Source of the DNA: a virus
DNA: 64,000 nt
Virus record (IMG/VR): IMGVR_UViG_3300003860_000007
Location: 1 to 64,000 of that record
Direction: 5' to 3' (one strand)
The stretch's first letter is position 1, and each line of letters opens with the position of its first letter. This document shows, piece by piece, positions 1,454-56,240 of this stretch. The notes beneath the pieces are model-generated. The model saw only the letters and a program-made list of their open reading frames with translations. It did not search any database and was not told where the DNA came from. The translations under genes and the position numbers were made by a program.

Positions 1454-2053
1454 TTATTTTCTAATAATATGATTATTTATTTTTTGAGGCATAGCTGCTT
1501 CTATTAGTTTATCTGAAAATTGAATATTAGGACATTTCTTTTGCGCTTTTTCAAGAAATACTTTATACTCGTTTATATATTTTTTATAGTTCGCGTATAC
1601 ATAAATTAATCTATTGCTTTCTCCAATTGCTATTGTATTTGAGTCTCCTACTCTTTGAACAGTTAAAAATTTAGATTTTGTAGGAAGAACTGTAGTCCAA
1701 TTTTTATTTGTTTCTTGTAGTACTAATTGTTCAGCTTTTAACACTGAAAGAATATCATTGTGAATATTATTAGGTCTAAATTCTAAAAATAAATCTCCGT
1801 TTTCTATTATTACTCCTCTAACATCTTTTCCAAAATTGGTTAAATATTCTGGATTTCTCCATATTATAAAATCTTCATTTCTATAAAAAGGTTTTTTATC
1901 TCCTTTAAGTTTTTGTTTTTCTTGTTCTTCTTTATACTTTTTTTCAAATTCTTCATGTTCTCTTGGAACTCTTGATAAATTAGAATCTTGAGCAATAAAC
2001 TTATCTGATATACTCTCTTCTATTTTAATATTTTCACGAACAATCTTTAACAT
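1454..2053 (-). CDS. Hypothetical protein; N-terminus MLKIVRENIKIEE partially matches the conserved N-terminal module family
   Basis: ORF track; partial similarity to the MKIVRENINEKF...DPIxDMGIG family. Confidence 0.45.
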   Translation of the reverse strand: MLKIVRENIKIEESISDKFIAQDSNLSRVPREHEEFEKKYKEEQEKQKLKGDKKPFYRNEDFIIWRNPEYLTNFGKDVRGVIIENGDLFLEFRPNNIHNDILSVLKAEQLVLQETNKNWTTVLPTKSKFLTVQRVGDSNTIAIGESNRLIYVYANYKKYINEYKVFLEKAQKKCPNIQFSDKLIEAAMPQKINNHIIRK

Positions 2054-2745: not shown

Positions 2746-2946
2746 TTATTCTTCTTTTATATAAGCGTTTTTTACTTTAACGTTTTTCTTTACAGCATTT
2801 ATAAACTGCCATGGATTTTCAATTCCATAAATTTCTTTTCTATAATTATTATCATATATTATGACTACACAATATGTAACAGGTTTAAGAGGCACATACC
2901 CATTAAAAAAGGATTTTGGATTATATGATTTAAAAAAATCACTCAT
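2746..2946 (-). CDS. Hypothetical small protein
   Basis: ORF track only. Confidence 0.3.
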   Translation of the reverse strand: MSDFFKSYNPKSFFNGYVPLKPVTYCVVIIYDNNYRKEIYGIENPWQFINAVKKNVKVKNAYIKEE

Positions 2947-3284
2947 TTATGTACTTTAAATCCTTTATCTTTTAGTAGTGCTTGTATACCAGATCTATAC
3001 CAACTAAACGCAGTTTGAGGATTACCTTTAACTGTAATATATTTTGTAATAAAATCTCCTATTTTTTGATCATATTTATGAGGAAACCAGTTATCAGCAG
3101 ATCTTATTATATCTTCAGGAATTTCACGTGTTTCTAAGATTTGATGTAAATGATCTACTATCCATTTATCTAATTCTAACCAAGTATTAAAATCGCGATG
3201 TACATAAAGTCCAATTCCCATATCTTCTATAGGATCCGATTCTTCTTTAAATACTTCATTTATATTTTCTCTAACTAATTTCAT
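2943..3284 (-). CDS. Member of conserved-N-terminal-module paralog family
   Basis: N-terminus MKLVRENINEVFKEESDPIEDMGIG. Confidence 0.6.
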   Translation of the reverse strand: MKLVRENINEVFKEESDPIEDMGIGLYVHRDFNTWLELDKWIVDHLHQILETREIPEDIIRSADNWFPHKYDQKIGDFITKYITVKGNPQTAFSWYRSGIQALLKDKGFKVHK

Positions 3285-4105
3285 TCGTAAAAAGGCATTT
3301 TAACTTTACAAATCTTTCTAATTTTCGCTTCAGTAATTCCATAATGCATAGACATACAAACAGTTCCATCTATTCTTTTTGGAAATCCTTTTAATGATCT
3401 TATATCGTTATCTGATGCATTAAAATCTTCTTTTACATATTCAGGAAATCCTATGCATGATTGTATAGTTCCTGGAACACAAAAATTTCCATACACATGG
3501 TGAAATTTAATATATTCAGGAAGTTTTTTATATTTTGGATAAGTATTTCTAACACAATATAAATTTACTTGACCTTGTACTGTAATGCTTAAATCTTTAT
3601 TTATAGTATAATCAATAATATTCATTTCTTTAAGCCAATCTTTAATCTTTTTAATGATTCCTATACCCATGTCTTGAATAGGATCAGTATCTTCAGCAAA
3701 TTTTTCATTAACTGATTCATTTATTTTTAATACATCAAAATATTCGTCCCAAACTTCTATAGGGGCAGATCCATATGTATAATAATATCCTCCCGAATCT
3801 ATATACCTTCTTGCTGTTATAGCGTTCTGCACATTATCTCCAAAATTAATTATTACTAAACTTAAAATATTTTTTTCTTTGTTTACTTCTTTAACTATAC
3901 TAGTATTGCCTTTACGAATTCTTGCGGTGACCTTTTCAATATTTTCGTCAAAAATAATATCATTGTTTTTTTGATATAAATCTTGTTTAACTATAATTAT
4001 ATCTCCTTTCTTTATTCTCGTAAATTTAGATCCAATACCTAAATCCCATATGGGATCAGTTCCTTGTTCAAATTTTTCATTTATATGTTCTTTTACTATT
4101 TTCAT
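3281..4105 (-). CDS. Member of conserved-N-terminal-module family (module present twice)
   Basis: N-terminal MKIVKEHINEKFEQGTDPIWDLGIG plus an internal second copy INESVNEKFAEDTDPIQDMGIG near aa 130. Confidence 0.6.
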   Translation of the reverse strand: MKIVKEHINEKFEQGTDPIWDLGIGSKFTRIKKGDIIIVKQDLYQKNNDIIFDENIEKVTARIRKGNTSIVKEVNKEKNILSLVIINFGDNVQNAITARRYIDSGGYYYTYGSAPIEVWDEYFDVLKINESVNEKFAEDTDPIQDMGIGIIKKIKDWLKEMNIIDYTINKDLSITVQGQVNLYCVRNTYPKYKKLPEYIKFHHVYGNFCVPGTIQSCIGFPEYVKEDFNASDNDIRSLKGFPKRIDGTVCMSMHYGITEAKIRKICKVKMPFYE

Positions 4106-5579: not shown

Positions 5580-6755
5580 TTATTTTATATTAAGTTGATA
5601 TTTACAAAATTCTATCATTTTTTCATCTCCTGTATGTTTTCCTTCTGAATCAGACAATTTAATACAAGGTACCCATTCATCGTCAGGATCAGGTTTTGCT
5701 GCAATTAGTTTAATAACCATATTAAGTGGGTTAACTCCAACATCATTAGATAAATTTGTGCCTATTCCCATTGCGCATTTAATTTCTTTATTACATGATT
5801 TTGTTAATTCAATTGCAAGATCAGGATTAAGATTATCTGAAAAAATTATAGTTTTATCATTGGGGTCAATTCCCATACTTTGATAATGTTTAATAACTTT
5901 TTCTGCAAAATGAAATGGATTTCCACTATCATGTCTTACACCATCAAAAAGCTTTGAGAATTTTTTTCCAAATGATTTAAAGAATGATTCTGTTGTAAAT
6001 GTATCTGTAAGAGCAATTCCAAGATCACCTTGATAAACATTTGACCAGTTTTCAAGAGCTAAAAAATTTGCTTGTTTAAATCCATATTTTGCAGCATGAA
6101 ACATAAACCATTCATGTGCATGAGTTCCTATTGGAGTAAGATTAAACATATGAGCAAAGTGTACATTAGAAGTTCCATTAAAATTATCTCTCATACTAAA
6201 TGCTAAATCTTCTACAACTTCTTTTTGATTTTCATATGAATATCTTCTACGAGTTCCAAATTCAGAAATCTTAACTCCATGATTATTAAATAATGCAGCT
6301 TTTTTTAGATTATTTTGTTCTCTTTCTACTCTTGAATTTATTTTTTCTCCCGTCATTTTAAAATACAATTCAGATATAAGAGCAAGAAGTGGAACTTCCC
6401 AAAGAATTGTACGATACCAGTAGCCTTCTACAGTTACTTGAAGTTCACTTCCATTTTGTATAACTCCAACTTCTGAAGGATTATATCTATATCCTGCCAA
6501 AAAATCAAAATACGCAGGATCGATATATTTACATTTAGTTTCAAAGAAGTGTTTTTCTGCAGTCAAAAGTTTAAGAGAAGACATATGAGAAATTTGTAAT
6601 CTTAGTTCTTCTGCAAATCCTTCTGGAAAATTTACTTTTGAACGAACTATTAATGCATATTTAACTTTTGCTCTTGGAAAAAGTTTTAACACTGCATTCA
6701 TCATACTAAATTTATAAAGATCGTTATCGAGTATTGATGTAATTATAGGTTCCAT
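5580..6755 (-). CDS. pncB: Nicotinate phosphoribosyltransferase (PncB-like); probable start at internal MEPIITS, ORF track gives 5580..6794
   Basis: Motifs DNDLYKFSM, EFGTRRR, GTSNVHFA, PIGTHAHEW, GVRHDSGNP and GIGTNL follow PncB/NAPRTase order. The start is trimmed to the Met adjacent to the upstream stop. Confidence 0.75.
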   Translation of the reverse strand: MEPIITSILDNDLYKFSMMNAVLKLFPRAKVKYALIVRSKVNFPEGFAEELRLQISHMSSLKLLTAEKHFFETKCKYIDPAYFDFLAGYRYNPSEVGVIQNGSELQVTVEGYWYRTILWEVPLLALISELYFKMTGEKINSRVEREQNNLKKAALFNNHGVKISEFGTRRRYSYENQKEVVEDLAFSMRDNFNGTSNVHFAHMFNLTPIGTHAHEWFMFHAAKYGFKQANFLALENWSNVYQGDLGIALTDTFTTESFFKSFGKKFSKLFDGVRHDSGNPFHFAEKVIKHYQSMGIDPNDKTIIFSDNLNPDLAIELTKSCNKEIKCAMGIGTNLSNDVGVNPLNMVIKLIAAKPDPDDEWVPCIKLSDSEGKHTGDEKMIEFCKYQLNIK

Positions 6756-6756
6756 T

Positions 6757-7224
6757 TTATATTTTTTTAGCATGAAAATAAGTGACTCCATCAATTTCTG
6801 TCATATCAAGAATTTTAAATTGATATGCACTAAATAATGCTGTTACAATTCTTGGTGTTAACGATCTATCAATTTTATTATCTAATAAATTAAATATAAC
6901 ATCTATAAGCTTTCCATATAATATATGAGTTTTTAAACTCAACATAGGTTTACTTGCTATAAATTTTCCATATACATAAGTATTCTTTTTTAAAAGATTA
7001 TTAAAATCTTTAATAGTATCGTCTAAATATTTAATTTCATTTAATTTTTTAAGATGAACAAGCGTTTTAATTCCTTTTAGTTCATCTTTATCATAGAAAT
7101 AAAAATGTTTTCCCGAAAGAAATAAAACTTTTTCATCTTTAACTTTTTTATGTTTTTGCACATATGCATGCATAACATGATCATATGTTTCATCTTTATA
7201 TTGAATATCATTAAAACTTTTCAT
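6757..7224 (-). CDS. Hypothetical protein
   Basis: ORF track only. Confidence 0.35.
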   Translation of the reverse strand: MKSFNDIQYKDETYDHVMHAYVQKHKKVKDEKVLFLSGKHFYFYDKDELKGIKTLVHLKKLNEIKYLDDTIKDFNNLLKKNTYVYGKFIASKPMLSLKTHILYGKLIDVIFNLLDNKIDRSLTPRIVTALFSAYQFKILDMTEIDGVTYFHAKKI

Positions 7225-8574: not shown

Positions 8575-9225
8575 TTAAATATTTCCTATAAAAGAAAGTG
8601 TAAGAGAATCTACATAATAAACTTTAGCTTGTGTAAAAGCTTCTATAGTTTCTGACAAATCTGAATTTATTGATTTACACGCATCTTCAATAACATATGT
8701 ATTAAAACCTTCCATTGCTGCATCTATTGCAGTTTCTTTCACACAATAATCTAGAGCTAAACCACATACGTAAACTTCAACTACATTTCTTTCATTAAGA
8801 AAATCTTGAAGTTTTTTAGGAGCATCTGGATTTATTATTTTTGATCTATCAAATGCACTATAAACATGATTATTCCTTTCCATGCCTTTTTTAAAGATAT
8901 AAAAATCTTTTTTGCATTTTGATAAATTCAGATCTGGATGAAATGAAGCACCTAATGTATCTGCTACACAATGATCAGGCCAAAGAATATCTTTTTCTCC
9001 ATTTTCTCTTACGTAACTATCGTAAACAGAAGCTCCGGGATGTTGTGAGGCGAAAGCATCCATTTCTGGATCATGCCAATCTTGTGTAAATATAACTAAA
9101 TCAAATCTTTCAAGGAGATCATTAACTACGGGTACAATTTTGTCTCCATCTGGTACTGCTAGTGATCCTCCAGGGCAAAAATCTCTTTGCAAATCGATCA
9201 CTATTAATGCTTTTTTCTTTATCAT
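8575..9225 (-). CDS. pncA: Nicotinamidase / isochorismatase-family hydrolase (PncA-like)
   Basis: IVIDLQRDFCPGGSLAV and the later Cys-containing segment match the PncA/isochorismatase fold signature. Confidence 0.75.
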   Translation of the reverse strand: MIKKKALIVIDLQRDFCPGGSLAVPDGDKIVPVVNDLLERFDLVIFTQDWHDPEMDAFASQHPGASVYDSYVRENGEKDILWPDHCVADTLGASFHPDLNLSKCKKDFYIFKKGMERNNHVYSAFDRSKIINPDAPKKLQDFLNERNVVEVYVCGLALDYCVKETAIDAAMEGFNTYVIEDACKSINSDLSETIEAFTQAKVYYVDSLTLSFIGNI

Positions 9226-9381: not shown

Positions 9382-10317
9382 TCATAATTCTTCCTTTTTA
9401 TTTTTAACATATCTATTGTATATACTATTTTCATTTTCTATTATATCGTGTCTATATATATTGACAGGATTATTTCTTTTGAATTGAGATTTTAAATGTC
9501 GTTGAATGACAGAGTGTTGACGCATTTTATTAATTTCATCCATATATACTGCATTAACAGTTGGTGAATGTTTTTCAATAAAGTCTAAATATTCTTTAAG
9601 TATTCTATCAACTTCTTTATAACCATCTCTAGAATTTCCTGTCCAGTCTGGCATTATTTGTCCAAGATCTCCAAGATTTGTAACTCCAAGGCCATCAGTT
9701 GCAAGTGCAGTTATCGTATTTATTATTGTACTTCCTGCTTCATAATTTCCAGCATATTCATTCATAGTTAACCATTCTGCCATATCATATACTTCTGTTT
9801 TCCAAAGATTTTGTATCATACCATAATCACCTACATCACCATGAAGAGTCCAAAAACCAAGAAGAAATTCTGTATAATTATCAGTAGAAAGAACTATTCC
9901 ACGATGATATGAAGCTAAATCATACAAATAAATCATACGCAGTCTTGCTTTAAGATTTCCATTACGTATACGACTTGATGAACCTTCAGGATTAGGCGCA
10001 TGAAACAGCATATTAGATTCCATTTTGGAATACATAAAATTATATTCTTCTTCAACGCTATGCTCTAAGAATTTTGTACAAAATACTTTTCCTGTTAATT
10101 TGGCTCTTTCTAATTCTTCTGGTTGATTTGAACTTACTGGCAAACTTCTTCCTATAAGTGGAATATTTAATTCATCACAAACTGGTCTAGCAAGTGCTGC
10201 GCAAAGACAACTATCTATTCCACCTGAAATCCCTATAATAAGAGACTTTATATTATTGTTTGTAATATACAGACTTAATTCTTTTCGAATATTCGATACT
10301 GCTATTTGATAATTCAT
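9382..10317 (-). CDS. nadE: NH3-dependent NAD+ synthetase (NadE)
   Basis: PP-loop IGISGGIDSCL (SGGxDS); overall length and layout match NadE. Confidence 0.8.
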   Translation of the reverse strand: MNYQIAVSNIRKELSLYITNNNIKSLIIGISGGIDSCLCAALARPVCDELNIPLIGRSLPVSSNQPEELERAKLTGKVFCTKFLEHSVEEEYNFMYSKMESNMLFHAPNPEGSSSRIRNGNLKARLRMIYLYDLASYHRGIVLSTDNYTEFLLGFWTLHGDVGDYGMIQNLWKTEVYDMAEWLTMNEYAGNYEAGSTIINTITALATDGLGVTNLGDLGQIMPDWTGNSRDGYKEVDRILKEYLDFIEKHSPTVNAVYMDEINKMRQHSVIQRHLKSQFKRNNPVNIYRHDIIENENSIYNRYVKNKKEEL

Positions 10318-11656: not shown

Positions 11657-13360
11657 TTAGATTTCAATCTTGTTGATTTCATCTATGATTACCTGTGGGT
11701 TTATTTCAACCTGAGGAATCTTTTCGTAGATGTCTTGACCGTAGCCGTAAAGACGGAATACTCTGTTTCCACCCTTTATAGGAGCAGTTGCTGCATATCC
11801 GCATACGTTGATGATGTATACGTATGGTGTTCCGAACTTCTTGCAGTATCCTGCATAAGAATTTTCTACATTGCTGTATCCATCCTGTTCGTCAGAGATG
11901 ATAAGAATTCTATCGTACTGCTTGTTAGTTCTTTCAAACAACTTGAAGCAAGAACCGAAATCTGTACCGTGACCGCAACATCCGTTGTAGGACATGAACT
12001 TCTGCTTTAACGTATTGATTGAATCGATTGGGTTCCAACCTACAATCTGTTCAGCAGTAGAAGCGAAATGGTATACATCTCCACCAACACCCTTTGCAAA
12101 TGTTGCAGCTACAAGTGCAGCCTTGTCAGCTGGCTTCTTATTGATAGCCTTCTTAGGGTCACCATTAAGATAAATGCTGGAGTATCCACCTTTCATAGAA
12201 CCTGATGTATCGAATACAACTGCTGTTCTACCTTCTGGAAGCAAGTTCTGAAGGTTTGGAATTGACAATTCATATGCTGTTGAAAGTGCCTTTGCAACCT
12301 TAGCCAACTGTGTTCCGTTGAATTCAAGTGTCATCACTTCAAGAGCAATGTCAATCTGGTGTGGCCATACAAGAGACTTACGGATGAATTCCTTTTCAAC
12401 AAGTAAATCGCACGCCTTGTCAAGAAGAACAGTATCATTGGTCTTAAGAATGTTACGTACGTTACGAAGTAATGCAAGGTACCCAATCTTCTTAGTTTCA
12501 ATAAGTTCCTTGTAGTTTTCAGTCTTAGCTTCATTAAGTTCAACAGTTGCCTGTTCCTTAGTGATAGTTCCAGCCTTAACCTTTTCAGCTACAACCTTTC
12601 CTGCTTCAGTATTCTTATCTTCAACAGTGTTGAACTGCTTAAGAACGCCAAGAACAAGAGCCTTAAGAGTTGGAAGACCAACATTACCATTTTCAGGTGC
12701 ATCTAAAAGATATTCATCCTTTTCGAACTTAGTACCCTTAACAGCCTTCAAGTATTCAGCTTCTGATACAAATACTGTTCCATTTATAGGTGTTTCATGT
12801 GGGTGCACTAAGTTAACGATGTCAACAAGGCTTACACCACGTGACTTCATCTGGTACTTAGCTAACTGATATGCATCTGCATGTTCAATTGCATCCTTGA
12901 ATCCCTTCTTAATAGCGTTTGGAATTGGTGCTTCTACACCATTCTTAGCCTGGTAACATGCAAGAATTTCTGCCATGTCATCAAGACGATAAACGATACC
13001 TCCACGATTTTCCTTACGGTCTCTCTTAGAGAAGAATCTCTTAGCGATTTCAGAACCTGCAAGGTGAGGGATTAATTCTACTGCACCGTAATGAGTAACA
13101 GAACGCTGTCCAAATACTGTACGTGCATAGATAAGTGCCTTAGCTGCGAATAATGCATTCTTCTGCGCAACTCTATTGATAACTTCACGGAATCTCTTTT
13201 CACGTTCAGTTTCCTTTTCGTAATAAGTATTATCTAAACCAGTAGATAAAATACCAATTAATTCATGTTCTGGCTTCTGTGTTAAACCAGTTCCACCCTG
13301 TAAAGTTACAGTTTCCTTAACTTCTGGGTTGCTTACTCTCTTTTCATTGTACTTTGACAT
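11657..13360 (-). CDS. Ro60/Rsr-like TROVE-domain protein with C-terminal vWA/MIDAS domain
   Basis: N-terminal region (TGLDNTYY..., ALFAAKALIYARTVFGQRS) parallels the Ro60 TROVE region. C-terminal VVFDTSGSM is a DxSxS MIDAS motif. The gene is visibly more GC-rich than its neighbours and is preceded by AAAGGAGGT. Confidence 0.6.
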   Translation of the reverse strand: MSKYNEKRVSNPEVKETVTLQGGTGLTQKPEHELIGILSTGLDNTYYEKETEREKRFREVINRVAQKNALFAAKALIYARTVFGQRSVTHYGAVELIPHLAGSEIAKRFFSKRDRKENRGGIVYRLDDMAEILACYQAKNGVEAPIPNAIKKGFKDAIEHADAYQLAKYQMKSRGVSLVDIVNLVHPHETPINGTVFVSEAEYLKAVKGTKFEKDEYLLDAPENGNVGLPTLKALVLGVLKQFNTVEDKNTEAGKVVAEKVKAGTITKEQATVELNEAKTENYKELIETKKIGYLALLRNVRNILKTNDTVLLDKACDLLVEKEFIRKSLVWPHQIDIALEVMTLEFNGTQLAKVAKALSTAYELSIPNLQNLLPEGRTAVVFDTSGSMKGGYSSIYLNGDPKKAINKKPADKAALVAATFAKGVGGDVYHFASTAEQIVGWNPIDSINTLKQKFMSYNGCCGHGTDFGSCFKLFERTNKQYDRILIISDEQDGYSNVENSYAGYCKKFGTPYVYIINVCGYAATAPIKGGNRVFRLYGYGQDIYEKIPQVEINPQVIIDEINKIEI

Positions 13361-16381: not shown

Positions 16382-16458
16382 TGGTTGTCCCGGCAAGGCT
16401 CGAACTTGAAGTCTTCAGAATCAAAATCTGACGTGTTAACCGATTACACCACGGGACA
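16382..16458 (-). tRNA. tRNA-Gln (anticodon UUG), CCA encoded
   Basis: Acceptor TGTCCCG/CGGGACA, anticodon arm TCAGA-TTTTGAT-TCTGA, T-arm CAAG-TTCGAGC-CTTG, 3' ACCA. Confidence 0.65.
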
Positions 16459-17100
16459 ATTTATAAAATCTAATAATTTTTCTATTGTAAAATATTTCAA
16501 TTCATAATATGGTATTCTATATATTCTCCATCCTTTAGATCTTAAAAAATTATCTTTTTTCATATCATGTTCAACCCTTTTTAATCCGTTAGTAAAATGA
16601 GGTTCTCCATCATATTCAATAGCAATTTTTTGATCAACAAAAGCAAAATCTATAAAATAAGGATAAATTGGATATTCATTTATAATTGAATATTTTTCAT
16701 AAAAACTATTATCTTTAAGCATTTTATTTATTATGCTTTCTCCTTTACTCATCAATCTTTTATGTCTATTTGTAAAAGTTGAAATATTATTTTCATCAGA
16801 TAAATAGTCAAAACGTTTTTGTCTTAAAATTTCTTTAGATTGTTCGTTATGATGTTTATCCTTGAATGCGTTAGTTATGTTTCCTTCTTTATAATTTTGT
16901 TTTAATGTGTTTGATTGTTGTAAAATAGACGCATTATTATGTTTTGTTTTTCCTTTTGCCCAGTGTATTTTTTCACCAGTTTTCAATGTTTTTCCCGTAT
17001 CATGTGCTTTACCTTCTTCTGTATGAGTCCTCCAAATATGGCCTTTAATTCCATATTTATTATATTCTTTTTCGCAATAAGGACATTTCATACAATACAT
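16444..17100 (-). CDS. Zinc-finger + PD-(D/E)xK (DUF559/Vsr-like) nuclease-fold protein; putative homing endonuclease
   Basis: N-terminal CPYCEKEY...HIWRTH. C-terminal YFIDFAFVDQKIAIEYDGEPH...KDNFLRSKGWRIYRI is a D...E.D restriction-endonuclease-like core. Confidence 0.55.
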   Translation of the reverse strand: MYCMKCPYCEKEYNKYGIKGHIWRTHTEEGKAHDTGKTLKTGEKIHWAKGKTKHNNASILQQSNTLKQNYKEGNITNAFKDKHHNEQSKEILRQKRFDYLSDENNISTFTNRHKRLMSKGESIINKMLKDNSFYEKYSIINEYPIYPYFIDFAFVDQKIAIEYDGEPHFTNGLKRVEHDMKKDNFLRSKGWRIYRIPYYELKYFTIEKLLDFINCPVV

Positions 17101-25105: not shown

Positions 25106-25764
25106 TTTATATTAAATATTTTTTCATAATTTTGAATATCTGATAAAAATATCATTTCAATATTATTATAATTACTCAAAATATATCTCATTTTCTTTTT
25201 ATCTTCTTCTTCATATCTTCCTTTAACTTCAAAGAACTTTTTTAAATTTGGACACCAAAAATCTGGATAATATGTGTGAATTTCCCCGAATTCATTTGTC
25301 CAAGATAAACCATCAGAAAAAGGCTTTATCCAATCTTTATCTATAATATTTAAAATAACTGCGAAACGTTTTTCATAGGTTCCTTGTACTTTTATCTTTG
25401 TTCCATCAGGTTTTATAATTTCATACCATTTACATTTTCCGCCAGTTATCCATCCTTTATTATTTATAGATATTTTTCTTTTTGTTTCTAAATCTCTTGG
25501 ACCATTTTTTCTTCCTTTCAATTTAGAAGGTCTTCCTTTTTTAGTATCCCAAACTCTATTTTCAGAATGAATAGCCCAAATATGAAATTTTACGCCTCTA
25601 GGATTATCATATTCTTTTTCACATATTGGACATTTATGAAAACCATTAGGTTGTTTATAAATATTAACTTTATTTTGTCTATTACCACATTTTTCATAAT
25701 GTTTCTTAAAATTTGATAAACTTATTTCTTTATTACATTTATCACAAATTCTTTTATTTACCAT
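25099..25764 (-). CDS. Zinc-finger + PD-(D/E)xK-fold nuclease-like protein; paralog of the truncated gene at 1..647
   Basis: CDKCNKEIS...KKHYEKCG, CPICEKEY...HIWAIH, C-terminal YYPDFWCPNLKKFFEVKG; sits inside the tRNA cluster. Confidence 0.5.
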   Translation of the reverse strand: MVNKRICDKCNKEISLSNFKKHYEKCGNRQNKVNIYKQPNGFHKCPICEKEYDNPRGVKFHIWAIHSENRVWDTKKGRPSKLKGRKNGPRDLETKRKISINNKGWITGGKCKWYEIIKPDGTKIKVQGTYEKRFAVILNIIDKDWIKPFSDGLSWTNEFGEIHTYYPDFWCPNLKKFFEVKGRYEEEDKKKMRYILSNYNNIEMIFLSDIQNYEKIFNIKL

Positions 25765-26652: not shown

Positions 26653-27051
26653 TTATTTCATTGTTATCTTATACGTGTGACTATCATCTAAAGAATACGG
26701 AGTTCCTCTTCTAGTATAAACACGAACTTCATAAATTCTATCAGACATATTTACACTACTAAAGTCTAATTTTATTTTAACTACTTCTATAGAAATATTT
26801 TTAGCCCATTTATATGTGTTAAAATTAAAAAAATCACCCGTTATTATTTTTCCTAATAATTTTTGTTTAAATAATTTGCGTAATTGAGCACGTCTTTTTT
26901 TAATTATAGTACTAATGTCTTTTTGTACATTTGTATAATATATTTCATTTTGATCTCTTAAAATAAAATTCTCTTTGTATCCTATACCCATATCTTTTAC
27001 TGGATCGGAATCTTCAACAAATTTTTCATTTATATGTTCTTTAACTATCAT
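26653..27051 (-). CDS. Member of conserved-N-terminal-module family (tandem paralog 1 of 3)
   Basis: MIVKEHINEKFVEDSDPVKDMGIG...KLLGKIITGDFFNF... Confidence 0.6.
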   Translation of the reverse strand: MIVKEHINEKFVEDSDPVKDMGIGYKENFILRDQNEIYYTNVQKDISTIIKKRRAQLRKLFKQKLLGKIITGDFFNFNTYKWAKNISIEVVKIKLDFSSVNMSDRIYEVRVYTRRGTPYSLDDSHTYKITMK

Positions 27052-27054
27052 AAT

Positions 27055-27470
27055 TTAAATCATTCTTAATGTATACATATTTTTGTAGTCTTCTAAAACA
27101 AAAGAATTTCCATCTTCATCATATACGCGAACTTCAGAAAGAGTATCACACCCATATCCATCATGAAAACTTACTCTTATTCTAACTACATTTACAGTTT
27201 TATTTTTTAGTGGTCTATAATAATCTCCTTTTTTAACTAAAAAAGTTCCTGTCATTTCTTTACCAACTAGTTTTTCTTTTAATTCTTTACGTAAAGTTTT
27301 TCTATATTTTTCTACTATCTTTTGAAATTGTTGATATGTGTATGAACCATATTCTTTTTTTGTTTAGAAAAATCATATTCTTCCTTATGACCTATACCCA
27401 TTTGACGAATAGGATCACCTTCTTCTTTAAACTTTTCAAATATATGTTCTTTAACTATCATGCGGGTATT
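27055..27470 (-). CDS. Member of conserved-N-terminal-module family with frameshift in an A7 run (tandem paralog 2 of 3); possible pseudogene or slippery site
   Basis: Minus strand reads MIVKEHIFEKFKEEGDPIRQMGIGHKEEYDFSKQKK. After caaaaaaag the co-linear frame switches to the ORF-track ORF 27055..27255 (...KLVGKEMTGTFLVKKGDYY...). The original frame hits TAG TAG. Confidence 0.45.
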
Positions 27471-27748
27471 CTCCAATGTGTTTTTAAAAATTCTTCTTCA
27501 GTATTAAAAGTTGTTATATCAATATTTTTTGTTATTATAAAATTATACCATAATTGTTCCCATTGATCAACATTTTGTAATTTTCCTGCTTTGTGTCTTT
27601 TCATTAGATCTTTTACATAATTCCAATTATTTATAATTTCTAAAACAGTTTCATTATGAATTATATATTCAGGCACGGACTGTTGAGCTTGCATATTTTG
27701 TTGTCCTGGTCCAAAGAACGCTTGAAAAAAATGTGGTGGTTGTTGCAT
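27458..27748 (-). CDS. Hypothetical Gln-rich protein
   Basis: ORF track only. Confidence 0.3.
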   Translation of the reverse strand: MQQPPHFFQAFFGPGQQNMQAQQSVPEYIIHNETVLEIINNWNYVKDLMKRHKAGKLQNVDQWEQLWYNFIITKNIDITTFNTEEEFLKTHWRIPA

Positions 27749-27755
27749 ATTTATT

Positions 27756-28148
27756 TTATTTAGCTGTTATTACATATTCTTGTTCACCCCAACTAGAGGT
27801 ATTCATATTATATTTTCTTCCTTTATTTGATGTTACTATTAATTCTCTTACATATCCATAATCTAAATCTACTACAACTTCAACACTTTTTATTAATAAT
27901 GATCTTGTCATTTCTTTATATTCTGTAAAAAAATCACCCGTCACAATTTTTCCAACAAATTTTTCACTCAGTTCTTTTTGTAATGAACTTTCCATTATTT
28001 TTAAAAGTTTTCTTTTTTCTTTATTAAATTTTTTCGCGTGAGTTGTACATAACACTTCCATATCAATTTTTTCTTTGTATCCTATACCCATATCGTGTAT
28101 AGGATCAGATTGTTCCTGAAATTTTTCAAATATGAAGTGAGCTTTCAT
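27756..28148 (-). CDS. Member of conserved-N-terminal-module family (tandem paralog 3 of 3)
   Basis: MKAHFIFEKFQEQSDPIHDMGIG...KFVGKIVTGDFFTEYK... Confidence 0.6.
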   Translation of the reverse strand: MKAHFIFEKFQEQSDPIHDMGIGYKEKIDMEVLCTTHAKKFNKEKRKLLKIMESSLQKELSEKFVGKIVTGDFFTEYKEMTRSLLIKSVEVVVDLDYGYVRELIVTSNKGRKYNMNTSSWGEQEYVITAK

Positions 28149-28153
28149 TTAGA

Positions 28154-28930
28154 TTATTTTATTTTGAATAATTTTCTAAATAATCCTCGTGATGCTTTAT
28201 GAGCATCTGCTTTTGCTGATAGATTTTCAGGATTTGAATCAGCATCAATAGCAGTCCAAACTTCCCACTGAAATCCCCATTCAGCAAAAGGAAAATAAGT
28301 ATATCCTTGATCGCCCCATTCTGCTGTCCATGAATTTCTAATAATAAATTTATCTTTAAGATATCCAGCAACACAAACTGCATGTCCACCTAACATTTCT
28401 TGACCAGTAAAATCTGGTTTCCAAAAATCCATTTTATCTGAATTAAATACTGGAAATGCAATATAACAAGGTCCATTAGCAAATAAAGCTTTTTTAAGTG
28501 AATCTACTGTATTGATTTGAGCATATCCTTGAATTTTATATTTAGCTGCTTTAAATTTTAATTCTGGCGTAATAGCTTTAAATTGTCCATAAGGATAATC
28601 TTTTTCTGTAACAATTCCAATCTTATATAAAATATCCATTGTATCTCTTGGTGTCATTCCAGAAGATTCTTGATTTGATCTTAAATTATATACAAATTGA
28701 GGTGATAAATATTCTCTAAGTTCAACATCTGTTAATTCTTCCCATTCTTTAAGTGCTGCTGCAGTTTGTGCAGAGCATGTACCTTGCTGACCTTGATCTC
28801 TTACTGGTCTCATTTGAGGTCTCAAATCCCATATTTCTGGAAGAACTACTCTGTTAGGATATATTGATTCTAACATAAAGTCCCTTTTATCTACGGGAGA
28901 TTTTTCAAGATTAAATAAATACTTTTGCAT
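28154..28930 (-). CDS. Papain-like (C1 family) cysteine peptidase
   Basis: Catalytic Cys context DQGQQGTCSAQTAAAL; His/Asn region LGGHAVCVAGY...IIRNSWTAEWGDQGY. Confidence 0.7.
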   Translation of the reverse strand: MQKYLFNLEKSPVDKRDFMLESIYPNRVVLPEIWDLRPQMRPVRDQGQQGTCSAQTAAALKEWEELTDVELREYLSPQFVYNLRSNQESSGMTPRDTMDILYKIGIVTEKDYPYGQFKAITPELKFKAAKYKIQGYAQINTVDSLKKALFANGPCYIAFPVFNSDKMDFWKPDFTGQEMLGGHAVCVAGYLKDKFIIRNSWTAEWGDQGYTYFPFAEWGFQWEVWTAIDADSNPENLSAKADAHKASRGLFRKLFKIK

Positions 28931-28939
28931 ATTATTAAA

Positions 28940-29461
28940 TTATTTTAATTTATCTACTACACTTTTTATTTTTTCTGCGCTTTTTATAATGTGATCTAAT
29001 GTATCTAAAAAATATTGATTAACTGGAGTATACTTATTACGAAAATCTACTGATGATCTTTTGTCTCCTGGCATAATTTCTTTATCTTGCCATATATTAT
29101 ATACTGGTTCAAAATATATTTTTATTGTTCTATATGAATATGAACTTGGAATGCCTGCACCTGTCACTCTATATAATGCCGTAATTATATCTGGAAATTT
29201 TACATCATCTTCATACCATAATTGATTAGCGCCTTGTTTTACACAAAATTTAATAAGATTTATTCTTTCAAATGTATTTTCTGCATAATGAGTTACTCCG
29301 ATTACTAATATATCATTATATGTTGATTGAGAAGTAATTTCTTCTCTAGAGTATTCCGGAAATTTTTTTAATATTTGAGCAAGTGGACCAATACCCATGT
29401 CTTTAATAGGATCTGATTCTTCAGAGAATTTTTCATTAAGATATTCACGTACACGGTCCAT
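28940..29461 (-). CDS. Member of conserved-N-terminal-module family
   Basis: MDRVREYLNEKFSEESDPIKDMGIG. Confidence 0.6.
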   Translation of the reverse strand: MDRVREYLNEKFSEESDPIKDMGIGPLAQILKKFPEYSREEITSQSTYNDILVIGVTHYAENTFERINLIKFCVKQGANQLWYEDDVKFPDIITALYRVTGAGIPSSYSYRTIKIYFEPVYNIWQDKEIMPGDKRSSVDFRNKYTPVNQYFLDTLDHIIKSAEKIKSVVDKLK

Positions 29462-29691: not shown

Positions 29692-30396
29692 ATGAACTAC
29701 CAAAAAATTTATGAATCTATAATTCAAAAAGCTAAATCTGAAAATAGAGTAAAACACAAAGAAGTATATTATGAAAATCATCATATTATGCCTAAATGTT
29801 TAGGTGGAAATAACGATATATCAAATTTAATTTTATTAACGGCAAAAGAACATTTTATATGTCATAAATTATTAACATATATTTATCCAACGAATAGAAA
29901 AATAATATGTGCTTTACATATGATGACATATTCTTGTAATGAAAATTCTATTAAATCTTCAAGAGATTATAAATTTGTAAAAGAGCTTTTATCAGATAAT
30001 AGTAAAGGAAAAAAACATCCTATGTTTGGAAAACATCATTCAGAAGATGCAATAAATAAAATGAAAAAACCACATAAAAAATATTCGAAAGATTATATGT
30101 TAAGCTTAAAAGAAATTCGTAAAGGAGAAAAAAATCCTATGTATGGCAAAAAACAAACTAAAGAATCAAATGAAAAAAATTCTCAATCTCATATAGGAAA
30201 AAAACATACAACAGAAAGTAAGAAAAAAATGTCTATAACTCGTATATCAAAACATTTTAAACATACAGAACAAACAAAAAAGAAACAAGGAGAATGGCAA
30301 AAAGGAAAAACATATATAGAACTATATGGAGAAGAAAAGGCATCACAAATGAAAGAAAAACAAAGACTTGCTAAATTACAAAAAAATAGGAAGTAA
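29692..30396 (+). CDS. HNH homing endonuclease with C-terminal K/H-rich NUMOD-like repeats
   Basis: YENHHIMPKCLGGNNDISNLILLTAKEHFICH is the HNH core; its close paralog is at 37143..37844. Confidence 0.85.
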   Translation: MNYQKIYESIIQKAKSENRVKHKEVYYENHHIMPKCLGGNNDISNLILLTAKEHFICHKLLTYIYPTNRKIICALHMMTYSCNENSIKSSRDYKFVKELLSDNSKGKKHPMFGKHHSEDAINKMKKPHKKYSKDYMLSLKEIRKGEKNPMYGKKQTKESNEKNSQSHIGKKHTTESKKKMSITRISKHFKHTEQTKKKQGEWQKGKTYIELYGEEKASQMKEKQRLAKLQKNRK

Positions 30397-40296: not shown

Positions 40297-40893
40297 TTAC
40301 TGTTTTTTATATAAAATATTAAATTTTTCTAATGCCATTTTAATTCTCTTATCATGTTCAAACGCCCATTCATATTTATCAATATCTTCAACCGGAATCC
40401 AATGCACCATATCTACTTCTTCACTGATAAATTGTTCAATATCTCTTGGAAGTAATTTTTGTGCAAGCGTAAAATCAAAAGCTAAACAATAATTTAATGC
40501 TATATTTTGACGGCATTCTTTAGATTCTGTTTCAACATAAAAAGGTTCTTTATTATTTGTAAATGCAAGATATTTTGAATAATCTTCAATAAGAAATGAG
40601 GTTTCTTCATATAGCTCTCTTCGTACTGCATCCCAGCCATTTTCATTCCAGTCTATGTATCCTCCTGGAGCTACCCATTTTCCAGGTTCGTCTCTTATTA
40701 TTTCAGATCTTTTTTCTCCAAGAACATGCACGCCATCACTAAATTCACCAAATACTATCGCTACTACTGCAACTGAACGAGATTCCCAAACTTCTCTTTT
40801 CTTAAAGAATTTTGAAAGTATCCAATAAATCCATTTTGGAAAAATAAAAACAAAATGGCAAGAGTTTAATTTATTAGTAAATATCGGTATCAT
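40297..40893 (-). CDS. Nudix hydrolase
   Basis: Nudix box GGYIDWNENGWDAVRRELYEETS (Gx5Ex7REUxEExGU). Confidence 0.7.
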   Translation of the reverse strand: MIPIFTNKLNSCHFVFIFPKWIYWILSKFFKKREVWESRSVAVVAIVFGEFSDGVHVLGEKRSEIIRDEPGKWVAPGGYIDWNENGWDAVRRELYEETSFLIEDYSKYLAFTNNKEPFYVETESKECRQNIALNYCLAFDFTLAQKLLPRDIEQFISEEVDMVHWIPVEDIDKYEWAFEHDKRIKMALEKFNILYKKQ

Positions 40894-49761: not shown

Positions 49762-50513
49762 TATTAACAGAAGATCAATTACTGATGTTAAATAAATGTG
49801 TAGCTCAGGGGCCTATAGATAAGGCCTCTGTAGTTATATTTGGCAATGAGTTTGGAACTGCTGGTGGAGAAGGTGATACTGAAAGATGTGTTAATAGATT
49901 TATGCATGAATTTGCCACAAGAAAATTATTACAAATAGGTGAAGGATTTTCAACAATAGAAATAGACTCGCCACCTGTAAACTCAACTTTTCTTCAGTTC
50001 ATTTCAAGATTTATGTTAGCACGTAAATATAAAGATGAAAGATTTTTCGGTGAGTTGTCAGAAGAAGGAAAAGTAGTTCTTAATAAGTATATAATGTATG
50101 ACCTTTATAGAAAAGATAGTGCTATAATAAATCTCAGACCACTACCGCGTCACACAGAAAGGCATTGGGACTACTCTAATATAGATGAAAAGGAATATAA
50201 TAGGCAATACAATTTTAGCCTTAAGAAGCCTTTGAATGACAAGTATAAAGAGATAAGATTGACAGCTATGAAAGAAGCTTTTCAATTAGCCAAGAATGCT
50301 TTGATATTAGGATCAGGCGATAAAGATAATAAAAAGAAATTTTTTGAAACGATATATCCTGATATTAAATTTGAAGAATACATATTACTTGGAAATGTAA
50401 AGATATACGTATCAGAATTTCCTAAAATAATTCTTTCAAATTACTATGATCATAGAAGTGGTGTAGGATTAAATGGATTGAAAGAAATCTATAGATTTGT
50501 TAATACCCTTTAG
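49758..50513 (+). CDS. Hypothetical protein
   Basis: ORF track only. Confidence 0.35.
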   Translation: MILTEDQLLMLNKCVAQGPIDKASVVIFGNEFGTAGGEGDTERCVNRFMHEFATRKLLQIGEGFSTIEIDSPPVNSTFLQFISRFMLARKYKDERFFGELSEEGKVVLNKYIMYDLYRKDSAIINLRPLPRHTERHWDYSNIDEKEYNRQYNFSLKKPLNDKYKEIRLTAMKEAFQLAKNALILGSGDKDNKKKFFETIYPDIKFEEYILLGNVKIYVSEFPKIILSNYYDHRSGVGLNGLKEIYRFVNTL

Positions 50514-51021
50514 GTCTAGTATGAATATCACTTATACAATCGCAAACATCTAAAATATCGTCTCTTGTAAATTCACCAGGATTTTGTGCGCAATAAATTA
50601 CTCCACTAAGACTGACATGACCTGGCATCTTTTTTCTTGGAGGATGTACTATTTCTGGAAAATATTTTAATGATGATATTTTATTGTCTTGAAAAGAAAA
50701 ATATCCATATATTTCTCTTGGACATCCTTTTAATGATGTCATATCATTACCCATTATATTAAATTCACCATCTATCACTCCAAATTTTATATAATAGGGG
50801 AAATTTCCTAAATGCTGATTACGTAAATCTACACTACCATATACATCTATAGTTCCATCTATATTGAATGTATATTGATTTTCTGTGAAACCGTGTCTTT
50901 CAAAAAATGCAGTATTTTTACCTATGTATTTATCTAACCATCTTTTTTGAATAGTTTTTAATCCAATTCCTAAATCATGAATTGGATCGCTTTCTTCTGA
51001 AAACCTTTCAGTAATATATTC
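50500..51021 (-). CDS. Member of conserved-N-terminal-module family; probable TTG start (ORF track gives 50500..51069)
   Basis: TTG AAA TTA GTA CGA GAA TAT gives (M)KLVREYITERFSEESDPIHDLGIG directly after the stop of 51033..51470. The ATG-initiated extension overlaps the upstream gene. Confidence 0.5.
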   Translation of the reverse strand, partial: EYITERFSEESDPIHDLGIGLKTIQKRWLDKYIGKNTAFFERHGFTENQYTFNIDGTIDVYGSVDLRNQHLGNFPYYIKFGVIDGEFNIMGNDMTSLKGCPREIYGYFSFQDNKISSLKYFPEIVHPPRKKMPGHVSLSGVIYCAQNPGEFTRDDILDVCDCISDIHTRPKGY

Positions 51022-51032
51022 TCGTACTAATT

Positions 51033-51470
51033 TCAAGTTTTTTCTATAATTTTGAAGTATTCTGCCCAAGTAGAATACTTTTCGTCGCTATATAATATCG
51101 CTAATCCTAAATAATTTTTTTCTAAATTATAGCCTTTTTTTATTTCTTTTTTACAATAATTAAAAAACTCATTATCTCCAAAAAATGCTATATATAATTC
51201 TAGTGATTTAGAATGTTTTTTACTTTTAACAACTACTCCTTTTATATCTTCTTTTGCCCACGGAAGGAAATTTTTTCCAAGAGTATCAGATGGTGAAAAA
51301 TACATTTTTTTAAGATTTGAGGGTGTATCTGCATTATAAAAATCTTTTTTAACTTTTATTGTATCTCCCCTTTTAATATTGCCGAATCCCATCGTTCCTA
51401 TACCCATATCAGCAATAGGGTCGCTTTCTTCTGTAAATTTCTCGTTAATATTTTCTCGTACTATGCGCAT
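51033..51470 (-). CDS. Member of conserved-N-terminal-module family
   Basis: MRIVRENINEKFTEESDPIADMGIG. Confidence 0.6.
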   Translation of the reverse strand: MRIVRENINEKFTEESDPIADMGIGTMGFGNIKRGDTIKVKKDFYNADTPSNLKKMYFSPSDTLGKNFLPWAKEDIKGVVVKSKKHSKSLELYIAFFGDNEFFNYCKKEIKKGYNLEKNYLGLAILYSDEKYSTWAEYFKIIEKT

Positions 51471-55420: not shown

Positions 55421-55429
55421 ATAAAAACT

Positions 55430-55705: not shown

Positions 55706-55740
55706 GAAATTTTAATATCATGCGAGAGAAAATATAAATA

Positions 55741-56193: not shown

Positions 56194-56240
56194 AATAAAA
56201 TAAATTCAAAAGTTATACTTTTAAGGACGAGACAATCTAT

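Follow-up and report, generated by a model that had tools for sequence, protein, structure and literature searches.

A conserved ~22-residue junction peptide precedes dozens of unrelated small domains in a huge uncultivated T4-related phage

A peptide module of ~22 residues, with the consensus Φ-[KR]-E-x-Φ-N-E-K-F-x-E-[ED]-S-D-P-Φ-x-D-[ML]-G-I-G, precedes dozens of unrelated small domains in a huge uncultivated T4-related phage of Bacteroidota that is known from metagenomes. The module is undescribed. It sits at the starts of genes and also between domains, and it is thus a junction peptide and not solely an N-terminal tag. The reading that we favor, tentatively, is that it combines a leader like the capsid-targeting sequence (CTS) of T4, ending in Φ-N-E, with a second conserved peptide, and that together they load and release internal proteins. 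We analyzed a window of 64,000 nucleotides (positions 1 to 64,000 of IMG/VR record IMGVR_UViG_3300003860_000007) and related loci.

The module and the genes that carry it

We searched the window with a profile HMM trained on 218 copies of the module, all from loci other than the window. It matched at nine places and no others (33-47 bits, i-E 1e-11 to 5e-16): 51396-51461, 29387-29452, 26980-27045, 3210-3275, 50962-51027, 3659-3721 (an internal copy), 28080-28139, 27390-27455, and 4031-4096. The best score in ten shuffled windows was -3 bits. The nine genes named in the original prediction all exist, and all lie on the minus strand. Ten module copies had been claimed for them; nine are complete, and the tenth (in 1454..2053) is a leader alone. 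The features are as follows.

1454..2053, minus strand: leader-only relative, 199 aa (MLKIVRENI..., MLKIVRENIKIEES...); no HMM match
2943..3284, minus strand: single-unit module gene, 113 aa; module 3210-3284, 39.5 bits; ATGA overlap with the upstream gene
3281..4105, minus strand: two-unit protein, 274 aa; modules 4031-4105 (N-terminal) and 3659-3721 (internal), 33.0 and 35.6 bits
26653..27051, minus strand: single-unit module gene, 132 aa; module 26980-27051; cargo a long helix and an SH3-like beta-barrel
27055..27461, minus strand: frameshifted third member of the paralog triplet; ATG start at 27461
27355..27361, minus strand: A7 run at the frameshift point; in-phase heptamer A_AAA_AAG
27756..28148, minus strand: single-unit module gene, 130 aa; module 28080-28148, 34.6 bits; short leader MKAHFIFE
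28154..28930, minus strand: Peptidase_C1 (papain-family cysteine peptidase), Pfam PF00112, E 4e-20; flanked by module genes
28940..29461, minus strand: single-unit module gene, 173 aa; module 29387-29461, 46.1 bits; singleton cargo
50500..51036, minus strand: single-unit module gene, 178 aa, TTG start; module 50962-51036, 36.6 bits; LRR-like cargo
51033..51470, minus strand: single-unit module gene, 145 aa; module 51396-51470, 46.9 bits; cargo start ...GNIKRGDTIKVKK

The TTG start predicted for one member stands, but it lies not at 51021 but at 51036, where it shares bases with the TGA that ends the upstream gene (cTTGAaa). Similarly, the predicted frameshift in the third paralog is present, with the start moved from 27470 to the ATG at 27461. 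The zero-frame product of this gene (27315-27461, 48 aa; P0001) carries the module at 27390-27461 and has been recorded from several sources; the -1 frame encodes the C-terminal domain (27055-27255). A 1-nt change, or a -1 slip at the A7 run, restores a full-length paralog, and the run may mark a deletion in the homopolymer or be a -1 slippery site. The intact triplet members, 27756..28148 and 26653..27051, share 50 identical positions in a global alignment. The leader-only relative at 1454..2053 is without the NEKF...DPIxDMGIG core, its leader being fused straight to a domain. That domain follows a complete module in locus L051 (33% identity; 47% to L022).

We numbered module positions relative to the D of D-P. 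The modal leader of the 152 N-terminal copies has 10 residues, from Met at -16 to Glu at -7, and ends in I/L/V-N-E; a shorter variant has eight (MRAKFINE or MKAHFIFE). This first part reads MK[LI]V[RK]E[HY]INE at N-termini and ΦKE[SN]ΦNE within proteins. Position -9 is I, L, or V in 76, 12, and 4% of N-terminal copies, and L, I, or V in 42, 28, and 25% of internal ones, and position -7 is E in 93-98% of copies. Conservation is equal between the 152 N-terminal and 80 internal copies. It is highest in K-F-x-E-[ED]-S-D-P-I-x-D-[ML]-G-I-G, on the C-terminal side of Φ-N-E. The E, K, F, and S of the module are 85-98% conserved although they were absent from the criteria by which instances were selected, and each position of [ML]-G-I is conserved in at least 89%, in part forced by the selection pattern. 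Position +5 is limited to M or L.

At the DNA level, identity is 0.55 at codon position 3 versus 0.78 at position 2, and synonymous codons encode 33% of the identical residues. Because third positions are the least conserved and synonymous codons are used, selection maintains the module as protein and not as DNA. This codon pattern largely refutes a DNA-level cassette boundary, in which the conserved ~66-75 nt would be a recombination or gene-conversion site and the conserved peptide a by-product. MegaBLAST of a 4-kb region against GenBank phages, which returned nothing, also speaks against such a boundary. Cassette-like gain and loss between syntenic genomes and the existence of units both fused and split would fit it, but we consider it very improbable.

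The original prediction could match the module to no named domain, and profile searches against Pfam, PHROGs, NCBIfam, and PDB sequences likewise gave no match. It was also not found in GenBank phages, Lak included. Two patterns (EESDPI[AKE]D and M[RDK][IRL]VRE[NY][IL]N) revealed no relative in 185,579 bacterial and archaeal species (GTDB, one genome per species), and every module context examined is a tailed phage. These results bear on an earlier analogy with polymorphic toxins, in which the module would be the trafficking anchor for a family of toxins or effectors that a secretion system exports. A common N-terminus on variable C-termini is what such families display, but the motif recurs internally, family searches of the cargo gave no toxin or immunity matches, and the cargo is instead ankyrin, LRR-like, SH3-like, or helical. 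The analogy is not upheld, and we give this reading the least credence of all.

Recurrence, cargo, and turnover

The module genes of the window are a fraction of a much larger family in the genome. At least 61 instances were found in the ~150 kb sampled of the ~400-kb genome, and 1,581 protein clusters (representatives at 50% identity) carry the module. The original prediction treated it as an N-terminal tag, which proved too narrow. In related contigs it recurs within proteins about every 125 residues (median over 63 spacings, 125). Multi-unit proteins have 2-10 junctions each, with a module before every ~125-residue bead. The same units are fused in one relative and split in another (L004 versus L006).

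Two syntenic relatives, L046 and L032, share with the window a backbone of HD protein, C1 peptidase, orf96, and orf73 at 56-73% amino-acid identity, and their module genes differ from those of the window in number, position, and cargo type. These differences support the rapid turnover that had been proposed. In L003 and L020 the portal gene is closely followed by module genes, and in L051 they fall within a run of baseplate genes, but many, including those of the region first flagged, are found among tRNA, homing-endonuclease, and metabolic genes and not among head genes. The relatives encode a T4-type portal (phrog_213) and baseplate wedge (phrog_219), and the closest portals are those of Lak and other huge phages of 462-735 kb. 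The T4 late-promoter motif TATAAATA is not enriched in the window.

BLAST clustering placed 217 cargo units in 68 clusters, in agreement with the claim that C-terminal parts differ between subfamilies. The window contains the 26653/27756 pair with its frameshifted member, a helical type (2943), a singleton (28940, with no family match), and an LRR-like pair (the second unit of 3281 and 50500) joined in one single-linkage cluster. By eye, the first unit of 3281 and 51033 have a common [KR]-G-D-x-I-x-V-K just after the module, and they are unclustered at BLAST E<=1e-3. The cargo type of 2943 (LYxxRDF...IPxDII) recurs in relatives; in P0040, 6 of the 10 beads are of this type as judged by eye. 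Ankyrin repeats (Pfam) and RNA-repair-type enzymes are found as cargo in related proteins. Cargo is basic (median pI 8.8) and is preceded by an acidic leader.

AlphaFold2 (AF2) models predict that the module is flexible beside confidently folded cargo. Module confidence was low in two unrelated contexts, in which the cargo (LRR-like in one, helix plus SH3-like barrel in the other) was modeled confidently. In 3281..4105, mean pLDDT is 43-61 in the blocks that hold the two modules, and most of residues 150-274 score >90. The first bead, which contains ...IKKGDIIIVK, was poorly modeled; the second is LRR-like, with weak LRR fold matches.

A flexible peptide at every domain boundary, acidic beside basic cargo, could be an uncleaved structural linker or folding aid, that is, a conserved spacer or cap for folding or solubility with no part in targeting or processing. 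However, linkers are normally poorly conserved, and here conservation exceeds 85% at ~11 positions over 1,581 clusters. Furthermore, the module is kept at the extreme N-terminus of single-domain proteins, where there is nothing to link. We regard a linker as quite improbable.

Cargo of this kind also raises the possibility of a universal handle on substrate receptors. The peptide would dock onto one phage or host machine (for example a protease, chaperone, modification enzyme, or polymerase), and the variable binders (ankyrin, LRR-like, SH3-like, and winged-helix-like) would recruit host targets by the logic of F-box, SOCS-box, or ANK-PRANC proteins, with no need for packaging. Classic protein-binding folds do predominate in the cargo, and the ankyrin and LRR domains would suit adaptors no less than injected proteins. 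The ~18 near-invariant residues hold more information than a cleavage site requires, and the flexibility predicted for the peptide is typical of docking motifs. Fast turnover and dozens of copies in each genome are what one would expect of arms-race families, and many copies lie outside structural gene clusters. The handle leaves unexplained the N-terminal leaders like those of the T4 family, ending Φ-x-E at residue 10, and the leader-only versions on enzymes and acidic proteins; up to 10 handles per multi-unit protein would be unusual for receptor families. In this docking-handle reading the multi-unit proteins would be multivalent adaptors. We consider the handle rather unlikely, and somewhat less likely again its fuller form, a phage counterpart of F-box and SOCS-box receptors in which interchangeable binders plugged into one machine retarget many host proteins such as defence factors.

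The neighboring peptidase and a model for loading and release

The papain-like protease predicted beside the triplet is indeed a Peptidase_C1, and it is a candidate for the processing protease. It is a conserved backbone gene, with orthologs 71-73% identical in L046 and L032, and it is flanked by module genes in both loci as in the window. A signal peptide or prodomain is not evident by eye. These properties are consistent with a cytoplasmic polyprotein: the C1 peptidase would recognize the junction and cut where Φ or M/L occupies P2 (such as Φ-N↓E or [ML]-G↓I-G), and the beads would be separated in the infected cell with no head targeting. The junction has several hydrophobic-P2 sites, and the M/L limit at position +5, the coexistence of fused and split units, and the ATGA or TTGA overlaps of tandem genes would also suit this scheme. 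However, Lak megaphages encode a homolog of the peptidase (31-33% identity) yet have no module, so the enzyme has another primary role. Their copy immediately follows the portal gene, with TAG-recoded genes around it (in-frame TAG codons: 10 in the portal, 4 in the peptidase, 11 in the next ORF), which points to head maturation and would fold cytoplasmic processing into the reading that we favor. In addition, adjacency could be incidental with at least 61 module copies per genome. Purely cytoplasmic processing thus appears unlikely to us.

The favored head-loading model divides the module into two parts. Part 1, the short amphipathic segment ending Φ-N-E, would be the counterpart of the T4 CTS and prohead-protease site. 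Part 2 (K-F-x-E-[ED]-S-D-P-Φ-x-D-[ML]-G-I-G) would be a docking peptide for one conserved phage partner. Since its D-[ML]-G-I-G is similar to the L-G-I by which encapsulin peptides are anchored, the simplest candidate may be the core of the prohead or the inside of the HK97-fold shell. Single-unit proteins and multi-unit polyproteins would be recruited into the assembling head, and a phage protease, either gp21-type (cutting Φ-x-E↓) or the C1 peptidase with Φ at P2, would cut at each junction. The cuts would release diverse small domains (ankyrin, LRR-like, SH3-like, helical, and some RNA-repair-type enzymes), which may travel with the DNA into the next host, like the internal proteins of T-even phages. 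Head targeting, the position of cleavage, the protease, and ejection are our inferences, whereas the motif, its periodic recurrence, its selection as protein, its predicted flexibility, the diversity and turnover of the cargo, and the T4-type, Lak-like lineage are results of the analysis.

The predicted resemblance to T4 capsid targeting holds in part. The 10-residue leader ending INE, the T4-type portal and baseplate, and the flexibility of the module agree with it, but the strongest conservation lies downstream of the proposed cut, 1-15 residues past the scissile bond, more than a simple CTS or cleavage site would account for. Enzymes and very acidic proteins also bear other leaders that end in Φ-x-E at residues 9-12. 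[LIV]NE falls within residues 5-16 of 7.1% of non-module ORFs versus 1.9% of internal windows, an enrichment that takes in some degenerate family members and compositionally biased N-termini. We looked for a gp21-type protease with T4 gp21 as a tblastn query and with an HMM made from five gp21 homologs; neither search gave a match in the window and ~80 loci (~700 kb in all, covering part of the ~400-kb genome), and no encapsulin shell gene was recognized among window ORFs scanned against Pfam and PHROGs. The many module genes placed among non-head genes, the adaptor-like ankyrin and LRR cargo, and the unenriched late-promoter motif also weigh against head loading, and the copies near the portal and baseplate genes weigh in its favor.

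If the module is a head-loading and processing signal, the set of internal proteins would be far larger and more modular than in any studied phage, with at least 61 units per genome that are often strung into polyproteins. The signal would be a simple, portable mark for finding virion-delivered takeover and anti-defence factors in metagenomes, with a possible use in loading foreign proteins into capsids. Should the module prove to be a handle that docks onto some other machine, it would represent a new phage adaptor system. In either reading the motif flags 1,581 so far unannotated protein clusters.

Comparison with known systems

In T4, the CTS is a 10-residue peptide, MKTYQEFIAE, which is cut once; in T-even internal proteins it is the sole shared part, and Alt is cut at ITE-6 and LTE-619. 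The module resembles these systems (the CTS, IPI-III, and Alt) in its ~10-residue leader from Met to a terminal Φ-x-E (MKTYQEFIAE versus MK[LI]V[RK]E[HY]INE). It also shares with T-even internal proteins a small, mostly basic, and diverse cargo that turns over between related phages, and with T4 the portal and baseplate lineage. In contrast to the T4 CTS, conservation of the module runs on, and more strongly, for 15 residues past the putative cut, and the module repeats before each bead, up to 10 units; to our knowledge, so many junctions per protein are without precedent among CTS systems. Copies number at least 61 per genome versus a handful in T4, ankyrin and LRR-like cargo is found here, and the loci sampled yielded no gp21 homolog. 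The N-termini of prohead proteases of T4-like cyanophages and pelagiphages also show a likeness: the gp21 proteases of S-SM2, Mosig, and CP30A start MKLIREEIE, MKLISEEIQ, and MKLIIEEPV, which the module leader resembles.

Paralogous families with a conserved N-terminus and a diverged remainder also occur in phiKZ, 201phi2-1, and SPN3US, where gp53 and gp54 have an identical 15-residue N-terminus. Head proteins of these giant phages carry N-terminal propeptides that are cleaved after Glu in a three-residue motif, some at multiple sites. The giant phages differ in that their motifs read [SAG]-x-E and no ~22-residue module is common to their propeptides; the families lack periodic beads-on-a-string and have no sequence similarity to the module described here.

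Viral polyproteins processed by papain-like proteases likewise have several units per ORF, a repeated conserved junction, and a papain-family peptidase encoded alongside. They differ in that module units also exist as separate genes with an N-terminal junction, and in that the peptidase here is C1A-type and is found in Lak phages without the junction. F-box, SOCS-box, and poxviral ANK-PRANC proteins are similar in combining a short conserved handle with variable ankyrin or LRR binders in large, fast-evolving families. The module has no sequence or fold kinship with them and is an unstructured ~22-mer that is repeated within a protein. We know of no partner complex in bacteria or phages.

Encapsulin targeting peptides such as NTGGDLGIRK and DGSLGIGSLKG bind HK97-fold shells via L-G-I (PMC7925596). 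Like the module (S-D-P-I-x-D-[ML]-G-I-G), they are short and flexible, and in both Φ-G-Φ comes after an acidic or Gly run, an apparent sequence likeness of 4-5 residues. Encapsulin peptides are usually C-terminal and encoded beside the shell gene, whereas the module is longer, stands before its cargo, and is phage-borne. They load unrelated cargo into an HK97-fold shell, and the module likewise precedes unrelated cargo. If true, the likeness of the module to both the T4 CTS and encapsulin peptides would connect cargo loading in phage heads and in encapsulins.

Module copies, their conservation and their distribution

All nine genes that had been predicted to carry the module (the ~22-residue peptide Φ-[KR]-E-x-Φ-N-E-K-F-x-E-[ED]-S-D-P-Φ-x-D-[ML]-G-I-G) are present on the minus strand of the window. 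A six-frame scan of the window recovered nine full copies, with seven residues invariant in their alignment. We searched the window with a profile HMM of 218 instances, exclusively from loci other than the window, and it matched precisely these nine copies (33-47 bits, against a maximum of -3 bits in ten shuffled windows). The partial tenth copy proposed at 1454..2053 keeps only the leader, the N-terminal part of the module, as MLKIVRENI, and went undetected by the HMM. The frameshifted member and the TTG-start member both exist, with starts at 27461 and 51036 rather than at the coordinates first assigned. The TTG at 51036 overlaps the TGA stop of the gene upstream, and tandem module genes overlap by ATGA or TTGA. 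The neighbouring papain-like protease (28154..28930) was confirmed as a Peptidase_C1 (E 4e-20).

In the frameshifted paralog (window 27312-27361, minus strand), the frame is lost at caA AAA AAG, an in-phase A_AAA_AAG of the canonical -1 slippery type. Shifting by -1 at this heptamer yields a full-length paralog, and the zero frame stops 17 codons on, at two consecutive TAG codons. TAG recoding was rejected as the cause, because read-through of TAG-TAG in the zero frame does not restore the homologous domain. The gene could be a homopolymer-deletion pseudogene or a case of programmed frameshifting.

Across 71 IMG/VR loci, the motif was found in 175 distinct ORFs, mostly as a single copy (134 ORFs), with two copies in 24, three in 14, four in one and five in two. 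Successive copies are spaced by a median of 125 residues, and the last is typically followed by ~100-150 residues. At least 61 instances fall within the ~150 kb sampled from the phage population of the window. A HMMER scan of 1.84 billion representatives returned 1,581 proteins at E<=1e-3 (87 at E<=1e-30), including P0040, a protein of 1,203 aa with 10 module copies. The module had been described as an N-terminal tag. It does occur at N-termini but also internally, so it is better described as a junction. From Φ(-9) to G(+8), the logo of the 152 N-terminal copies is near-identical to that of the 80 internal copies. The common core is Φ-N-E-K-F-[T/x]-E-[ED]-S-D-P-I-x-D-[ML]-G-I-G, in which E, K, F and S are 85-98% conserved although they lie outside the selection pattern. 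N-terminal copies are additionally preceded by M-K-[LI]-V-[RK]-E-[HY], and internal copies by a weaker Φ-K-E-[SN]. A toxin anchor is the least probable explanation that we considered.

Among the nine window copies, pairwise identity at codon positions 1/2/3 is 0.67/0.78/0.55 and one third of identical residues are encoded by different codons. It is therefore the peptide that is conserved and not the DNA; on the same analysis we rejected recent DNA duplication or gene conversion, and we regard a DNA-level boundary function as highly improbable.

The module had no match in Pfam, PHROGs, NCBIfam or a PDB sequence-profile search, and on these searches we rejected a known-domain explanation. MegaBLAST gave no match to the region in a set of 50,697 phage records that covers Lak and the huge phages LR7565xx, and tblastn matched neither the consensus module nor the 10-module P0040 there. 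The module was not found in GTDB species representatives, and we found no publication that uses DMGIG, DLGIG or INEKF in this sense. In the Jug-phage paper, on Bacteroides phages of 360-402 kb, none of the terms 'paralog', 'ankyrin' and 'N-terminal' appears, and 'motif' is used for DKTGT only. The motif family is large and appears to be undescribed.

Cargo domains and gene turnover

BLAST clustering grouped 217 cargo units (the variable small domains, or beads, that follow each module copy) into 68 clusters. The cargo types include ankyrin repeats, LRR-like repeats, SH3-like barrels, a helical 'LYxxRDF...IPxDII' type and, by eye, a winged-helix-like type. Some large proteins combine module beads with enzymes. 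Examples include P0078, which joins them to a nucleotidyltransferase and a DUF6267 with a ligase-like KxDG motif, and another large protein with a 2H phosphoesterase. Most of the cargo is basic, with a median pI of 8.8, and the module is acidic. In L051, a contig from the same phage population as the window, a 91-aa module protein (6787-7062) carries a DnaJ-like CxxCxGxG zinc-finger segment (by eye) as cargo. It is flanked by a gp25-like ORF (by eye) and, beyond a GIY-YIG-like gene, by a gp6-like baseplate wedge gene.

The AF2 model of the two-unit protein 3281..4105 has an LRR-like bead (residues 150-274) mostly at pLDDT >90, for which Foldseek returned weak LRR matches, and both module copies lie within blocks of mean pLDDT 43-61. 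The module came out in both AF2 cases as a flexible peptide with no packing against its own cargo. Such flexibility would suit a passive linker, a reading that we consider very unlikely. The model in which the module is a handle that docks binder domains onto one machine explains why the cargo is of the binder type and why the information content is high. It leaves the leader features unexplained, and we hold it to be unlikely, if the strongest of the rivals.

Module genes differ between relatives around a stable backbone. The order HD protein - C1 peptidase - orf96 - orf73 of window 26.4-29.5 kb is kept in two related loci (L046 and L032) at 56-73% amino-acid identity. The window has one module gene upstream of the peptidase and three downstream. 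L046 has one ankyrin+LRR two-unit gene upstream and none downstream, and in L032 we found a degenerate copy of 61 aa together with a 130-aa gene whose cargo is different. The same units are present both fused and split in another pair of loci (L004 and L006).

Phage lineage and other genes of the window

The window has a GC content of 28.9% and 16 tRNAs, one of them a CTA-anticodon suppressor. Shine-Dalgarno sequences are almost absent upstream of its genes, and several genes are preceded by TAnnTTTG-like motifs, a promoter consensus typical of Bacteroidota. The T4 late-promoter motif TATAAATA is not enriched in the window (20 observed vs 23 expected). Window proteins are on record on a 405,016-bp contig, and one of them (P0195) additionally on a 378,433-bp ENA contig; P0133 led only to a 2.7-kb contig, and the 270-aa and 2290-aa genes at the window ends had no match on record. 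The IMG/VR contigs UViG_3300003860_000003 and _000004 come from the same phage population, as L035 and L073 match at 99.85% nucleotide identity. In related contigs we recognised genes for a T4-type portal (phrog_213, E 1e-48) and for a baseplate wedge (phrog_219). The closest portals are from Lak megaphages (~40% amino-acid identity) and 462-735 kb 'uncultured phage' genomes LR7565xx.

The CTA-anticodon tRNA (amber suppressor; 18769-18842, minus strand) lies within the 16-tRNA region and was labelled 'Pyl' by ARAGORN. The window genes are intact under code 11, TAG terminates only 5 of the 58 long ORFs, and TAG is recoded in related Lak phages. Homing-endonuclease-like genes are dispersed among the tRNAs and module genes.

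Homing-endonuclease-like genes in the window
16444-17100, DUF559/Vsr-like
23406-24209, DUF559/Vsr-like
29692-30396, NUMOD3
4786-5361, GIY-YIG-like ORF (by eye)
25099-25764, zinc-finger ORF (by eye)

Other genes form an NAD salvage set, comprising a nicotinate phosphoribosyltransferase-like gene (5580-6794, by eye only), a nicotinamidase/isochorismatase (8575-9225), an NAD synthase (9382-10317) and a NUDIX hydrolase (40297-40893), which could jointly rebuild NAD during infection. The gene at 11657-13360 (minus strand) codes for 567 aa and has a TROVE (Ro60-like) domain; an Rfam scan of the window returned tRNAs only and no Y-RNA-like gene. The plus strand at 51533-63113 encodes a collagen-repeat protein of 1,295 aa that ends in an S74 chaperone domain (tail-fibre type), and after it a protein of 2,290 aa that contains PKD and DUF285 repeats. 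Transcription of both diverges from that of the module genes at 50500-51470.

Leaders, candidate proteases and comparison with known systems

The modal N-terminal leader has 10 residues, the last three being I-N-E. Two further conserved leaders, MKF[TS]SYxxWLNE and M(M)SFYPRLLE, which end in Φ-x-E at residues 9-12, were identified from N-termini and domain borders in eight loci (L002, L011, L057, L015, L021, L034, L048 and L062). The DPIxDMGIG part follows in some and is absent in others. The first leader occurs on RNA-repair-type (nucleotidyltransferase/ligase-like) enzymes and the second on ~520-aa proteins that are PD-(D/E)xK-like by eye; a 2H phosphoesterase with a weak match to anti-CBASS Acb1 is also among these proteins. 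More broadly, [LIV]NE falls within residues 5-16 of 7.1% of non-module ORFs vs 1.9% of internal windows, and several of these ORFs are extremely acidic, reminiscent of scaffold and core proteins such as T4 gp22, gp67 and gp68. Very acidic low-complexity proteins of 322-656 aa with EDLEDED repeats are encoded in two of the compared contigs (L037 7270-9048; L073 12426-13394 and 14842-16812); they have N-terminal ...LNE leaders, match no family and are candidates for a scaffold or core role.

In two loci (L003 and L020), module genes are found a short way downstream of the portal. Those of L051 belong to a run of genes in which we also see a gp25-like ORF (by eye) and a gp6-like baseplate wedge with homology to the L006 wedge matched to phrog_219.

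No gp21-type protease was matched in the window and the other loci searched, which represent the smaller part of the genome. The C1 peptidase belongs to the backbone of the lineage. In Lak-A1 (MK250016.1, 4939-8936), its homolog directly follows the portal and precedes a 417-aa protein that starts with MRTFINDILNE and has a very acidic central region; in-frame TAG codons number 10 in the portal, 4 in the peptidase and 11 in the 417-aa ORF. Because this order matches the usual portal - protease - scaffold arrangement, these phages could conceivably use a papain-type head protease, and by gene order such an enzyme may serve as the head-maturation protease of the lineage. The junction would fit either Φ-x-E↓ or papain-type hydrophobic-P2 specificity. 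Cytoplasmic processing by the C1 peptidase next to the module genes is, in our judgement, improbable. PHROG scans gave no informative match for unknown L073 ORFs or for the acidic protein of Lak. The leaders FINDILNE of Lak and FNINDYLD of the portal-proximal L020 protein look alike, but we discarded this as evidence because BLASTP gave no significant match.

We tentatively interpret the module as a signal for head loading and processing, a reading that falls short of even odds. It explains the leader, lineage, flexibility, cargo diversity and turnover. The best-conserved 15 residues, after the proposed cut, are unexplained by this model alone, and proteins with 10 junctions are without precedent for it.

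One of the nearest known systems is the T4 capsid-targeting sequence (CTS), the ~10-residue MKTYQEFIAE, which is the sole feature common to diverse T-even internal proteins and beside which these are cut once. Alt has cleavage sites at ITE-6 and LTE-619, and N-terminal propeptides can stay identical between giant-phage paralogs. Like MKTYQEFIAE, the module leader has ~10 residues and ends in Φ-x-E. The N-termini of the prohead proteases of S-SM2 (MKLIREEIE), Mosig (MKLISEEIQ) and CP30A (MKLIIEEPV) closely resemble the module leader MKLVREHINE. The module end D-[ML]-G-I-G resembles encapsulin targeting peptides (NTGGDLGIRK; consensus DGSLGIGSLKG), in which L-G-I provides the anchor to the HK97-fold shell (PMC7925596); at the level of sequence, we treat this resemblance as a lead. 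If the handle model were true, the module would represent a new kind of system. If head loading is true, it would represent the CTS/internal-protein principle of T4 in a bipartite, intraprotein-repeated and greatly expanded form.
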